A DNA stretch of 40,115 bases from Candidatus Bathyarchaeota archaeon (GTDB lineage Archaea; Thermoproteota; Bathyarchaeia; Bathyarchaeales; Bathycorpusculaceae): contig CAVTBV010000015.1 of assembly GCA_963733095.1 (NCBI GenBank), positions 1 through 40,115 of the forward strand, in the 5' to 3' direction. This document shows positions 2,630 through 6,165 of the stretch, one piece after another (positions within the stretch are counted from its first letter, which is position 1; every line of letters starts with the position of its first letter). The notes below the pieces were generated by a model, which saw only the letters and a list, made by a program, of their open reading frames with translations, did not search any database and was not told the DNA's origin. Made by a program: the position numbers and the translations under genes.

Positions 2630-3691
2630 ATGAGGATTATCTTCCATTTGGACATGGATCATTTCTACACTGCAGTTGAGGAGCGCGAGCGCCCGGAAAT
2701 CAAGGGGAAACCCGTTATCGTTGGTTCGGATCCAAAGGAAGGCAAAGGAAGAGGCGTCGTATCCACAAGCAACTATGAAGCCAGAGCATCAGGCGTGCGC
2801 TCAGGTATGCCGATTTCTATGGCTTGGCGGTTGTGTCAGCGGGCGGTTTATTTGCCGCCGAATTTCCCTTTGTACATTCGGGTTTCAGGTGAAATCATGT
2901 CGCTGGCGCGTAAGTACTCTGGGAAGTTTGAGCAGTGGGGGATTGATGAGGCTTTTTTGGATGTGTCGGAGAAGGTTGCGAATTGGGCTGAGGCGGCGGC
3001 GTTGGCGCGGCAGATTAAGCAGGAGATTAAGGACAAAGAGGGCATCACTGCATCGATTGGCGTGGGACCTAACAAACTCGTCGCTAAGGTTGCCAGTGAC
3101 TTCCAGAAACCCGACGGCTTAACCATCGTCAAGGAAAACGAAGTAGAAAAGTTCCTCGAACCCCTGCCCGTTCGCAAGCTGCTGTGGGTGGGGCGCAAAA
3201 CCGAAGCCAAACTCAAGGAATTGAGCGTGAACACGATCGGCGATTTGGCGCGTTATGATGCTTCGGCTTTGACTTCGATGTTTGGGGTGATGGGCTTGCA
3301 GATGCATTTATCTGCGAAGGGCATCGACAAGAGTGAAGTTGAAGAACGCCTAGGCGTCAAAAGTGTAAGCCACGAAACAACCTTTGAGCAAGATACTGCA
3401 GACTCCACTGTTATTTTTCAAGCGTTGGGTACACTCTGTGAGGATGTTTTGAAGGAAACTGTTAATCAGCATTTACTGTTTAAAACTGTCACCGTTAAGA
3501 TTCGCTATCAGGGCTTTGAGACTCATACGAGAAGCAAAACCCTGCTTTTCTTAACTAACCAGCTTCGCGATTTGCAGAAAACCGCGAACGAATTGTTGTT
3601 TTCTAATCTGCGCAAAGACCGTAAAGTTCGGCTTATCGGTGTGCGGGTTTCCAGCTTGGTTTCTTCTGAGAAGCAGAGGACACTGGTTTAG
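2630..3691 (+). CDS. dinB: DNA polymerase IV (Y-family)
   Basis: HLDMDHFY, SNYEAR..GVRSGMP, IDEAFLDV, AKVASDFQKPDG, VRLIGVRVS motifs. Confidence 0.96.
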   Translation: MRIIFHLDMDHFYTAVEERERPEIKGKPVIVGSDPKEGKGRGVVSTSNYEARASGVRSGMPISMAWRLCQRAVYLPPNFPLYIRVSGEIMSLARKYSGKFEQWGIDEAFLDVSEKVANWAEAAALARQIKQEIKDKEGITASIGVGPNKLVAKVASDFQKPDGLTIVKENEVEKFLEPLPVRKLLWVGRKTEAKLKELSVNTIGDLARYDASALTSMFGVMGLQMHLSAKGIDKSEVEERLGVKSVSHETTFEQDTADSTVIFQALGTLCEDVLKETVNQHLLFKTVTVKIRYQGFETHTRSKTLLFLTNQLRDLQKTANELLFSNLRKDRKVRLIGVRVSSLVSSEKQRTLV

Positions 3692-4239
3692 AGTTCAGAG
3701 ATTTTCTTGGGCACCAGACGCTTTCCGTATTCTTCTTCGCTGGCGACTTGGCTTAGGGTTTTTCTGTTTCGCACGATGTTGAGGAGCTTGCTGGATAAGT
3801 CCAATTTACCGCTTGGGTAGCCGACGGAGAGCATGACGAGGACTTCAAGGGGGTCTGGGATTTTCAGGGCGGCTTTGATATCTTTTTCGGCGAAGCTTCC
3901 TACGCAGCATGTTCCTAAACCTAGGCTGACGGCAGTCAACACCATATTCTCCACGGCTAAGGCAACGTCGATAGCGTGCCATTTAGGCGATGCTTTCTTG
4001 TCGCCGCAAGCAACAATGACAAGAGGCGCCTGCGTTAGGAACTTTGCCCATGTGCCTCCAGACAAAGTTTTCCGCTTCTCGGCGTCGGTTACTGCGATGA
4101 AGTGCCAGGGCTCGATGTTTCTGGCTGACGGCGCCAACCGACCCGCCTCCAGAATCTTTTCCATCATTTCTCTTGGAACAGGCTTGTCCTCATAGCTGCG
4201 GATCGAACGCCGCTCCTGTATGGCTTCAAAAACATCCAT
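3688..4239 (-). CDS. Nitroreductase family protein
   Basis: RRSIRSY, APSARNIEPWHF, GLGTCCVG motifs. Confidence 0.93.
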   Translation of the reverse strand: MDVFEAIQERRSIRSYEDKPVPREMMEKILEAGRLAPSARNIEPWHFIAVTDAEKRKTLSGGTWAKFLTQAPLVIVACGDKKASPKWHAIDVALAVENMVLTAVSLGLGTCCVGSFAEKDIKAALKIPDPLEVLVMLSVGYPSGKLDLSSKLLNIVRNRKTLSQVASEEEYGKRLVPKKISEL

Positions 4240-4369: not shown

Positions 4370-5017
4370 TTATTTTGTGGGGTCAGCTATGCCTGCTTCT
4401 TGGAAGGCTTTTTTGCGGTTGACACAGGATTCGCATTTGCCGCAGTGTTTCTCGTTATCTATGTAGCAGGACCATGTCAACTCAAAGGGAACGCCTAATT
4501 CGGTGCCTGCCTTGATTACTTCGGATTTGCGTTTTCCGCTGAACGGGGCTTGAATCGTGATGTTTTCGCCTGTGCCCAGCCTTGCCGCCGTCTCGAACGA
4601 TTTGTAGAATTCGTGTCTGCAGTCGGGGTAGAATGGTTCGTCTGAGCCGTGAGCGCCGTAAAAAATCTTGTCAGCGCAAACGGAAACTGCGTAGGATACC
4701 GCTACAGATAGAAATATGGCGTTTCTGAATGGGACGATGATGGGCTGGCTGAATTCAGCTGTTATCGGAATGTTGATGTTGCAGAGTGAGGTTACGTCGC
4801 CGAAGACTCCCTTGAGGGCGGAGAGGTCAACGATTTTTGTTTTGGCGCCGAGGCTTTCGGCGATTTTTTCTGCGGCTTGGGTTTCTTTTACGGCGATTTG
4901 CCCATAGTTGAAAGTTATAGGGTACAATTCGTAACCCTGTTTTTTTGCCCAGTACGCCACCACAGCTGAATCTGGACCGCCGCTAAGAACGATCACGCAT
5001 TTTTTGGTTTCTTTCAT
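4370..5017 (-). CDS. queC: 7-cyano-7-deazaguanine (preQ0) synthase; start moved to ATG 5017 (MKETKK)
   Basis: SGGPDS PP-loop, VPFRNAIFLS, YPDCR, TWSCY..HCGKCESC. Confidence 0.95.
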   Translation of the reverse strand: MKETKKCVIVLSGGPDSAVVAYWAKKQGYELYPITFNYGQIAVKETQAAEKIAESLGAKTKIVDLSALKGVFGDVTSLCNINIPITAEFSQPIIVPFRNAIFLSVAVSYAVSVCADKIFYGAHGSDEPFYPDCRHEFYKSFETAARLGTGENITIQAPFSGKRKSEVIKAGTELGVPFELTWSCYIDNEKHCGKCESCVNRKKAFQEAGIADPTK

Positions 5018-5037
5018 GATTTCTGCTCCATATTTTT

Positions 5038-5538
5038 TTATTTTCCGAGCCATCCTTGAATACCTGTTTTCTTTAGAACCTTGAATAGTGGGTATCCTAT
5101 TAGGACGCTTGCAACGGTGTTTCCAAGGGTTACGTAGGCAATGGTGACAAGCAATGGGTATCCATAGAGGTATGAGAGCATCCATCCAACTGTGGTTCCT
5201 AGAACTGCTGAGTATGCGATGCAAGTTCCGATTATAGTGTAGTCATTGCTGGTTTTTTTGTAAGTATAATACACGACGAAAGCCATGACGAAGGATGGTA
5301 TCGTATTTAGCAGGTCGATGGGGCCTGCAGGAGAGAACAAGTTGGAGATGAATACTCCAAGGGTATGACCTAAAACGCCTGCTATGCCTAGCAGGGGTAC
5401 AGCGGCAACCATTGAATCTGCTATTCGAACATTCAAGAGTCCATAAGATAAAAATCCGAGGCTAACAACTAGTGCCACATACACTGCAGCATAAATCGAC
5501 ATTAAAGCTAAATCTTTCGTACGTATTTTCAAGTGCAT
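5038..5538 (-). CDS. queT: QueT-family queuosine-precursor transporter (ECF S-component-like)
   Basis: IYAAVYVALVV..SYGLLNVRIAD..LGVFISNLFSP.G..D pattern; directly upstream of queC. Confidence 0.85.
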   Translation of the reverse strand: MHLKIRTKDLALMSIYAAVYVALVVSLGFLSYGLLNVRIADSMVAAVPLLGIAGVLGHTLGVFISNLFSPAGPIDLLNTIPSFVMAFVVYYTYKKTSNDYTIIGTCIAYSAVLGTTVGWMLSYLYGYPLLVTIAYVTLGNTVASVLIGYPLFKVLKKTGIQGWLGK

Positions 5539-5610
5539 TTCTCCCTACTCCCGGGTTTTATTTTTTGGTTGGCGGAACGGGTAGGAGAATCCACTCACCC
5601 GCCAATTCGC
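5539..5610 (-). ncRNA. Candidate preQ-type riboswitch-like leader of queT-queC
   Basis: 7-bp stem UUGGCGG/CCGCCAA, A-rich tail AAAAAAUAAAACCC, loop UUCUCCUACCC complementary to the SD region GGGAGUAGGGAGAA; TATA-like TTTTTAT at 5631-5637 (minus strand). Confidence 0.6.
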
Positions 5611-5694
5611 AAATGAACCTTCAAGCATCAATAAAAACCTTGTGAATAATCTTTTTTCAAGTCCCATTTGCCCATGCATTCAACGTCTGAATGT

Positions 5695-5740
5695 TTAGTC
5701 AAGAAAGTTTGACTAACTTTAGTCAAGAAAATTTTACGAA
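5695..5740. promoter_or_regulatory. Tandem palindromic operator
   Basis: TTAGTCAA-gaaagt-TTGACTAA (5695-5716) followed by TTAGTCAA-gaaaat-TTTACGAA (5719-5740). Confidence 0.65.
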
Positions 5741-5791
5741 AACCCATTTTATTGATGATTAAAAATAGGAAGTCACGGAAATGCGAGGGAT

Positions 5792-5962
5792 ATGGCGTTA
5801 AACCACTATGTGATAAATCATAGACTTCTTATTCAAATGCAGAAAAACGGCAATGTTTTCTGCGCTATATGTCATCAACCGATCGTTGAAGGACAGCGAG
5901 TTGCTTCAAGAAAAGCCACATCTGTTCGGCATGAAGAATGTTATCAGCGGTCTTTTGTTTAA
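5792..5962 (+). CDS. Small zinc-finger protein (56 aa, CxxC...HxxC), not in ORF track
   Basis: MALNHYVINHRLLIQMQKNGNVFCAICHQPIVEGQRVASRKATSVRHEECYQRSFV; GAGGGA just upstream. Confidence 0.7.
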   Translation: MALNHYVINHRLLIQMQKNGNVFCAICHQPIVEGQRVASRKATSVRHEECYQRSFV

Positions 5963-6165
5963 CAAAGGCCCCTTATGATTGATACCTTGATCTTCAGGAA
6001 AGTCGGGTATCAGTATTGGTATCTCTTGGTCTTTACATGGAGAATAGGCGTACAGGGATAATGGCGTCTTTGGCGAAATATTAATAAAGTCCTCAGAAAG
6101 ATTAGATGTTGCTACTTCCTAGTGGATGGCATTCCGCGAAACGGAGTTTTAGGGAGCACAAAACT

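Follow-up and report, generated by a model that had tools for sequence, protein, structure and literature searches.

The queT–queC genes of a Candidatus Bathyarchaeota archaeon are preceded by a small structured leader which, as judged from its sequence and that of its relatives, probably represents a new archaeal class of 7-deazaguanine riboswitch, one that would sense preQ0 and turn translation off. In the window, i.e., the whole stretch of 40,115 nucleotides that was analysed, the leader occupies positions 5605–5539 of the minus strand and consists of a 7-bp stem (P1) closed by a 23-nt loop, an A-rich linker, and the segment CGGGAGUAGGGAGAA, which abuts the queT start. A pseudoknot is formed between the loop and this last segment, and its covariation across archaeal lineages, together with the conservation of unpaired bases at its junction and a gene context confined to one pathway, carries the assignment.

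The order of elements along the minus strand is UUGGCGG-GUGAGUGGAUUCUCCUACCCGUU-CCGCCAA-CCAAAAAAUAAAACC-CGGGAGUAGGGAGAA-AUG, with the same letters as quoted in the preliminary description of this DNA. The 5' strand of P1, UUGGCGG (5605–5599), pairs with CCGCCAA (5575–5569) at every position, and the stem is indeed as perfect as had been claimed. The loop begins with L1, GUGAG UGGA (5598–5590), the first two positions of which, G and U, are invariant. It continues with UUCUCCUACCCG (5589–5578), assigned from covariation and duplex energies as the 5' strand of P2 and hence as the strand opposing the Shine-Dalgarno (SD) sequence, and it ends with the invariant L2 dinucleotide UU (5577–5576). On the 3' side of P1 lies L3, a linker of 15 nt (5568–5554) that is A-rich, as had been said of the tail, and has a conserved 3' core A-N-A-A-A-[C/A/U]-C-C. 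The 3' strand of P2 (5553–5539) follows; it includes the SD sequence GGGAG of the ribosome-binding region and makes 12 pairs with the loop strand. Pairing of a loop segment over the ribosome-binding region had been proposed in the preliminary description; it is present, extends further than was written there, and covaries in orthologues. In the window it runs from G5578:C5553 onward through the 12 pairs, interrupted by two small bulges, with a duplex energy of −13.9 kcal/mol. The nested minimum free energy of the window leader, compared with shuffled sequences, indicates no extra stability (z = −0.03), a value that speaks neither for nor against the leader because the program is blind to pseudoknots.

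The first open reading frame after the leader encodes a QueT protein of 166 residues (5038–5538, minus strand; start ATG 5538, possibly TTG 5532), which matches PF06177 with an E-value of 3.1e-20 and 73.4 bits (cut-off 33.7). The second gene, queC (4370–5053, minus strand, within an open reading frame spanning 4370–5224; the start is probably ATG 5053 or 5017), matches TIGR00364 with 190.2 bits (cut-off 150.3) and PF06508 with an E-value of 3.2e-62 over residues 75–277. The earlier placement of the element upstream of queT–queC is borne out by the QueT match to PF06177 and the QueC match to TIGR00364, and, because the queC start overlaps or abuts the queT end, both genes form one operon. On the same strand, 130 nt 3' of queC, there is a gene of the nitroreductase family (3688–4239; PF00881, E 6.3e-34). 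The genome itself, which is 95% complete, encodes one TGT and one QueD and yields no match to the QueF family. Since TGT and QueD are present without QueF, the free 7-deazaguanine base to be expected in this archaeon is preQ0, not preQ1.

A TATA-like box, TTTTTATT, is located at 5637–5630 on the minus strand with its first base 32 nt 5' of the first base of P1, and is the putative queT promoter. The centre of an archaeal TATA box lies ~26–27 nt upstream of the transcription start, and when this spacing is applied to the box, the transcript is expected to begin at ~5607 (range 5610–5604), i.e., at the foot of P1. A start downstream of the stem had been named among the outcomes that would speak against the element; the TATA-like box, which is kept at a fixed distance, predicts a start at the stem foot instead. 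Across 151 loci, and with the top G of P1 as the reference, the AT content is highest, at 92%, at positions −35 and −34; the peak is preceded by an A-rich stretch, and a TATA-like hexamer starts 26–35 nt before the first P1 base at 100 of the loci, most often at −30. Further upstream on the minus strand, at 5690–5725 and ~55–85 nt 5' of the TATA-like box, there is a direct repeat of TTTCTTGACTAAA, the two copies of which flank the palindrome GACTAA-AG-TTAGTC. A near-identical repeat block is found upstream of the leader at the orthologous locus L008. The block may be a transcription-factor site, either for queT or for the divergent small open reading frame at 5792–5962.

QueT homologues are present in 51 of 61 related genomes. 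The leader motif occurs in the 160 nt upstream of all 25 queT orthologues from the same genus (60–79% protein identity), and a recognisable version of it also at two orthologues from other families (~40% identity). A covariance model, R1, was derived from 25 orthologous leaders with P1 as its only structure. It has one match in the archaeon's own genome (90.8 bits, E 4.9e-26; the runner-up has an E-value of 0.68), and it detects the leader, nearly always as a single copy, in most genomes of the same order: in 117 of all 151, and in 85 of the 105 that are of high quality. In a sample of the phylum, 31 of 151 genomes gave a match, and outside the order the leader is found in family f14 of the same class (one of two genomes) and in families f21 (9/15), f33 (3/3) and f37 (2/2). 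One of the f21 leaders is identical to that of a named Methanomethylicus MAG; the archaeal AmoA profile PF12942 had no match in five f21 genomes, where the control was likewise unmatched everywhere. QueT was not found in families f15, f19 and f24 of the phylum, and one f23 genome has QueT without this leader.

When 185,579 species genomes were scanned with an exact pattern, at least 115 stretches matched, on contigs that overlap the genomes searched with R1 and do not form an independent sample. Among the matches listed, all 80 titles shown are archaeal. Most belong to Candidatus Bathyarchaeia or Bathyarchaeota MAGs, others to Methanomethylicus or Methanomethylicota, some are labelled Nitrososphaerota or Nitrososphaeria, and two carry the label Promethearchaeota or Promethearchaeati.

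Whether the orthologous leaders are conserved had been left as a check in the preliminary description; they are strongly conserved, and both helices covary. For the analysis of covariation, 80 further R1 hits were fetched and all hits were aligned to R1, giving alignments A3 (77 rows), A4 (81 rows) and A5 (100 rows, a clean subset with E ≤1e-5). All three were built by a model trained on this same leader family; since R1 knows only P1, they are not fitted to the pseudoknot. For P1 and P2 taken together, 87.7% of 1801 cells in A5 are paired, compared with 44–55% in slid controls, and 14 of 20 pairs changed on both sides (111 cells); none of 500 shuffles was as high. The corresponding values are 92.3% paired against 40–54% and both-side changes in 12 of 19 pairs for A3, and 85.6% against 40–56% and 13 of 20 pairs for A4, again with 0/500 shuffles as high in either case; kinship among the aligned sequences makes these shuffle and change counts overstate independence, and the 42 distinct 12-nt loop strands are a fairer measure of the compensated types.

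The P1 helix is paired in 97.7% of its A5 cells and changed on both sides in five of its seven pairs. GGCGG:CCGCC is replaced by GGCGC:GCGCC or by GACGG:CCGUC; the GC pair at the top can be inverted to CG, and AU is also seen in place of GC. Compensation in P2 is seen where ACCCG:CGGxGU becomes AUCCG:CGGA(x)U and where CACCUCC:GGAGGUG becomes CAUCUCC:GGAGAUG. Further variants combine UGCCC with GGxxGCA or ACCAG with CUGGxU, and one lineage has replaced P2 wholesale, combining UUUCCGACCCG with CGGUGUCGGAAG. Cognate loop and SD strands have a mean duplex energy of −17.55 kcal/mol compared with −15.21 kcal/mol for non-cognate ones (RNAduplex, 148 distinct combinations), and none of 10,000 permutations of the partners reached the cognate mean. 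Two additional outermost pairs of P2 were tried and are unsupported (33.8% paired in A5). RNAalifold, a tool that cannot predict pseudoknots, returned only P1 and one G-U pair for A3, and a mutual-information scan of A5 for tertiary contacts recovered only the P2 pairs, neighbouring columns and lineage effects. We regard the comparative data as decisive for the predicted leader pseudoknot, which lies far beyond chance.

Covariation of this kind shows that the pairing is selected and is silent on a ligand, and it would be shared by a ligand-independent structured leader, the pseudoknot of which damps queT translation or senses temperature or ions with no metabolite involved. The length and stability of P2 (−13.9 kcal/mol for the window duplex, and the family mean of −17.55 kcal/mol) would suit such a role. 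A plain mask over the SD sequence does not need, however, the near-invariant unpaired positions at the junction, of which there are at least 11, and the element is kept before four gene types of a single pathway (queT, queC, queE-like and GATase-queC). For these reasons we consider a ligand-free leader unlikely.

The unpaired positions, invariant or nearly so across classes of the phylum, were counted in 228 distinct sequences from 273 source instances, 115 of which were obtained with a pattern that fixes some of the bases. The first two positions of L1 are G and U in 228/228 sequences, and the second position of L2 is T in all 228 and the first in 227, all four of these being fixed in the pattern-derived instances; columns 38–39 of A5, corresponding to L2, read TT in all printed rows. 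Three consecutive A residues in L3 are each present in 228/228 sequences (two of them pattern-fixed), the A three positions before them in 223/228, and the CC in 227/228. The model-derived alignments agree with the invariant unpaired bases. Conserved junction bases beside drifting helices are the usual signature of a ligand pocket.

Within L1, the purines at columns 13–14 of A5 (window positions 5596–5595) read GA in 74 and AG in 19 of 99 rows, and mixtures are rare. The joint exchange points to a common role of the two bases, e.g., stacked on each other or in a sheared purine pair; it tracks lineage, however, and simple inheritance may also explain it. A K-turn or L7Ae site at GUGA was considered by eye and rejected: GA is missing from the opposite strand, CCGUU, and the variants GUAGG and GUAAG exist.

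The L1 purines also bear on the suggestion that the leader is a protein operator, at which a repressor closes the SD sequence, e.g., ArcTGT reading A-G-U-G-G in L1 as a mimic of the tRNA D-loop. The D-loop signature of tRNA is AG..GG, which G-U-R-R-G followed by UGG loosely resembles, and a single TGT is encoded in the genome. The likeness is limited, however, to four or five bases, and variants with GUGGG-UUU occur at L085 and L086. Moreover, the genes upstream of the element vary from lineage to lineage, no conserved regulator gene is found next to it, and the known control of que genes operates through RNA only (PMC5372724). On balance, a protein operator seems rather improbable.

According to the riboswitch mechanism that we propose, the 5' leader of queT–queC, ~70 nt in length, would begin at the foot of the P1 hairpin (GGCGG:CCGCC), and the P1 loop would contribute its 3' half (CCUCC-CACCCG; here UUCUCCUACCCG), which would pair with the SD-containing sequence CGG-x-GU-N-GGGAGG to form the H-type pseudoknot helix P2. 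The invariant UU would join P1 and P2, and the A-rich linker ending in AAA-N-CC would cross P1. A ligand accommodated at the P1/P2 junction would stabilise P2 and thereby hide the ribosome-binding site, which would lower translation of queT and, by coupling, of queC. When the ligand is absent, a further hairpin, P1b (GUGG:CCAC), would hold the strand opposing the SD sequence, and the SD sequence would be freed. The OFF direction of this mechanism is based on the logic of the pathway and on the bacterial preQ1 classes. With a length of 12 pairs here, P2 might remain closed also without ligand.

In P1b, UGG at 5593–5591 together with G5594 can pair with CCAC of the loop strand (5584–5581). The P1b cells are paired in 90.6% of cases in A3 and 97.3% in A4. 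The changes are mainly one-sided, from GC to GU, with both-side changes in two pairs per alignment. Where a C in the shared strand is replaced by U, its SD partner changes from G to A and its P1b partner remains G, i.e., a wobble pair; such changes are weakly indicative of two maintained pairings, with which they are compatible. The energies in the window are −13.9 kcal/mol for P1 with P1b, −9.6 kcal/mol for P1 alone and −10.0 kcal/mol for P2 alone before the pseudoknot penalty, from which the P1/P1b and P1/P2 states would be roughly balanced.

Two plausible states, as implied by the P1b pairing frequencies, are also what could be expected of a riboswitch with another ligand (guanine, the archaeosine base, or a pathway intermediate such as CDG or CPH4) or with the ON sign, brought about by locking of P1b, and an L2 composed of UU and devoid of C points to a recognition unlike that in preQ1-I. 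The controlled genes, however, import and make preQ0, for which repression by the product is the simple scheme, and in each of the three preQ1 classes known, these gene families are under the control of OFF switches. A different ligand or sign is thus an improbable alternative, and we retain preQ0-dependent repression as the preferred interpretation.

The genes behind the leader were assigned for both sets of instances. R1 gave 158 hits, seven of which (L087, L088, L089 (tRNA 3' end), L164, L166, L167 and L124:691) were dropped as false because they score ≤21.2 bits, are without P1 and loop, and have no QueT downstream. In 149 of the 151 accepted instances, queT comes directly after the leader, the QueT reading frame starting between about −14 and +25 nt from the end of the motif; of the other two, one is at a contig end and one has queC and then queT behind it. 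A queC gene is found 3' of queT on the same strand in at least 76 loci. The instances from the pattern scan, at least 115 in number, precede queT in 105 cases and are located at contig ends in four. Three stand before a gene for a QueE-like radical-SAM protein, behind which lies queC at one locus and GATase-queC at another, one stands before queC and then queT, one before a membrane protein without assigned family and then queC, and one is without an open reading frame. For the QueE-like proteins, the best NCBIfam matches are all to QueE models; they have E-values of 1e-25 to 1e-31 and fall short of the curated cut-offs. The 7-deazaguanine context anticipated in the preliminary description is thereby matched, the element standing only before the 7-deazaguanine genes queT, queC, queE-like and GATase-queC, and the predicted regulon is synthesis and import of preQ0.

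The membrane protein mentioned above is encoded at L205:5727–6557 (−) in a Bathyarchaeia MAG, between the leader and queC. It is a multi-pass protein of 277 residues with no Pfam or NCBIfam match, and may be a strongly diverged QueT or belong to an additional family of 7-deazaguanine transporters. At L240:5243–6691 (+), a GATase-QueC fusion (PF13537 and PF06508) lies behind a QueE-like gene in an operon headed by the leader. This fusion is counted among the enzymes for the last step to archaeosine; if this role is true, the leader would be tied to archaeosine synthesis, beyond the supply of the precursor.

Archaea have few riboswitches. We know of no class that is specific to them, and a full-text search of the literature, covering main texts, found no archaeal preQ riboswitch. 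In a 2017 survey (PMC5473149), the archaeal riboswitches are mainly of the TPP and fluoride classes; FMN, Mg2+-I and guanidine-II are represented by a few examples, and Crenarchaeota and Thaumarchaeota by only a handful of matches. In PMC5372724, queT is linked to bacterial preQ1 riboswitches, and salvage of preQ0 is predicted in archaea. If the present interpretation is true, the leader would constitute a widespread archaeal class, the first archaeal one for a 7-deazapurine and possibly the first class tuned to preQ0, linking control by RNA to the archaeosine modification of tRNA. With a length of ~65 nt and a canonical SD sequence, the element is directly testable in vitro, and its possible uses are as a tool for ligand-controlled expression in archaea and as an annotation marker for preQ0 genes in uncultured Bathyarchaeia.

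Compared with known riboswitch families, the leader stands apart. Rfam 15 returned no family for the whole window at gathering scores, and at E ≤10 it returned no riboswitch for window positions 5000–6100, for the 106-nt leader region 5520–5625, or for eight related loci. The preliminary description had classified the element as a preQ-type riboswitch-like pseudoknot and had pointed to the Rfam preQ1 models; RF00522, RF01054 and RF02680 are all without a match at E ≤10. Of that classification, the part that stands is a pseudoknot predicted to work like those of preQ1 riboswitches, and the part that falls is membership of a known class, the loop layout being unlike that of preQ1-I. The dimensions of the family are 5–7 bp for P1, 8–14 nt for L1, 18–27 nt for the whole loop and 11–14 pairs for P2. 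The distance from CCGC in the 3' strand of P1 to the conserved CC ranges from 8 to 22 nt, the value being 9 nt for 125 of the 228 sequences; the linker is A-rich and in most members too short for an embedded hairpin. The leader has the structural and contextual traits of a riboswitch, i.e., a conserved structured 5' leader, covarying helices, conserved junction bases and association with one pathway.

With preQ1-I (RF00522, types 1–3), the leader shares a small P1, an A-rich L3 expected to lie along P1, a pseudoknot between loop and tail over the ribosome-binding site, and the association with queC, queE and queT. The traits of the preQ1-I H-type fold are accordingly found here, with a short P1 (5–7 bp), an A-rich L3 and a P2 that joins loop and tail. 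The preQ1-I consensus has, however, an L1 of 2–3 nt, a P2 of 3–4 bp and a longer L2 that ends in the C with which the ligand pairs, whereas here L1 is 8–14 nt, L2 is an invariant UU without C, and P2 comprises 11–14 pairs. Because the ligand-pairing cytosine is missing from L2, no known class can serve as a template for the binding pocket, and, if the riboswitch assignment is true, the leader would present a new fold for the recognition of 7-deazaguanines.

A second small leader, type B, was observed before a QueT paralogue that is ~29% identical to the window QueT. Its sequence is GGUAG-UUU-CCG-UAUAUAAC-CUACC-UUAAAAAAC(C)-CGG, which sometimes runs into GGUGA and the start codon, and it is found at L028:1455–1500 (+), L029, L286–L289 and L292–L306. 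Its layout resembles that of preQ1-I, with a P1 of 5 bp, an L1 of 3 nt, a P2 of 3 bp, a C at the end of L2 and an A-rich L3; at E ≤10, no Rfam family, RF00522 included, matches it. The exact type B pattern occurs in 15 of 401 genomes of the order and in 13 of 88 in the genus, and one genome, G030, carries both leader types. Sequence variation among the 15 genomes is almost nil, too little to assess covariation.

Type B is relevant to the idea that the queT–queC leader is by ancestry a very divergent member of preQ1-I, with the strand opposing the SD sequence as an insertion into L1. The topology is the same (P1, a pseudoknot from loop to tail, A-rich L3), and the preQ1-I-like type B leader of 15/401 genomes shares the tail AAAAAACC(C)GG. 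Neither leader is matched by RF00522 at E ≤10, however, and an L2 of 2 nt without C, an L1 of 8–14 nt and a P2 of 11–14 pairs lie outside the preQ1-I consensus, so that descent from preQ1-I appears very improbable. A separate class remains the preferred reading. A broader proposal, which we put forward tentatively as a real possibility, is that Thermoproteota (Bathyarchaeia, Methanomethylicia and others) possess their own preQ0-selective class of three helices, unrelated to bacterial preQ1-I, -II and -III, in which the loop strand chooses between a decoy within the loop and the ribosome-binding site; together with type B, there would then be at least two archaeal 7-deazaguanine classes.

Other pseudoknotted riboswitches share fewer features. 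The preQ1-III class (RF02680) has in common the presumed ligand family and control by occlusion of the SD sequence. It is an HLout pseudoknot with the SD sequence in a separate downstream helix, whereas here the SD sequence is itself a strand of the pseudoknot, and its model has no match. Riboswitches of the SAM-II/SAM-V type likewise are single pseudoknots with the SD sequence on the 3' strand, and a ligand is expected at the junction or in the groove. Their models do not match either, and their context of methionine and SAM genes differs from that of the leader.

The closest system in topology and gene context is preQ1-II (the COG4708/queT motif, RF01054). Both elements are located before queT and form an H-type pseudoknot through pairing of the loop of a hairpin with a 3' tail bearing the SD sequence, and translational OFF control is presumed for both. 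The two differ in the linker between the pseudoknot strands, where preQ1-II is defined by an embedded hairpin, P4, and the archaeal leader has an unstructured, A-rich L3 of 9–15 nt. They differ also in the conserved junction bases and in their carriers, which are Streptococcaceae or Lactobacillales for preQ1-II and archaea, i.e., Bathyarchaeia and Methanomethylicus, for the leader described here.
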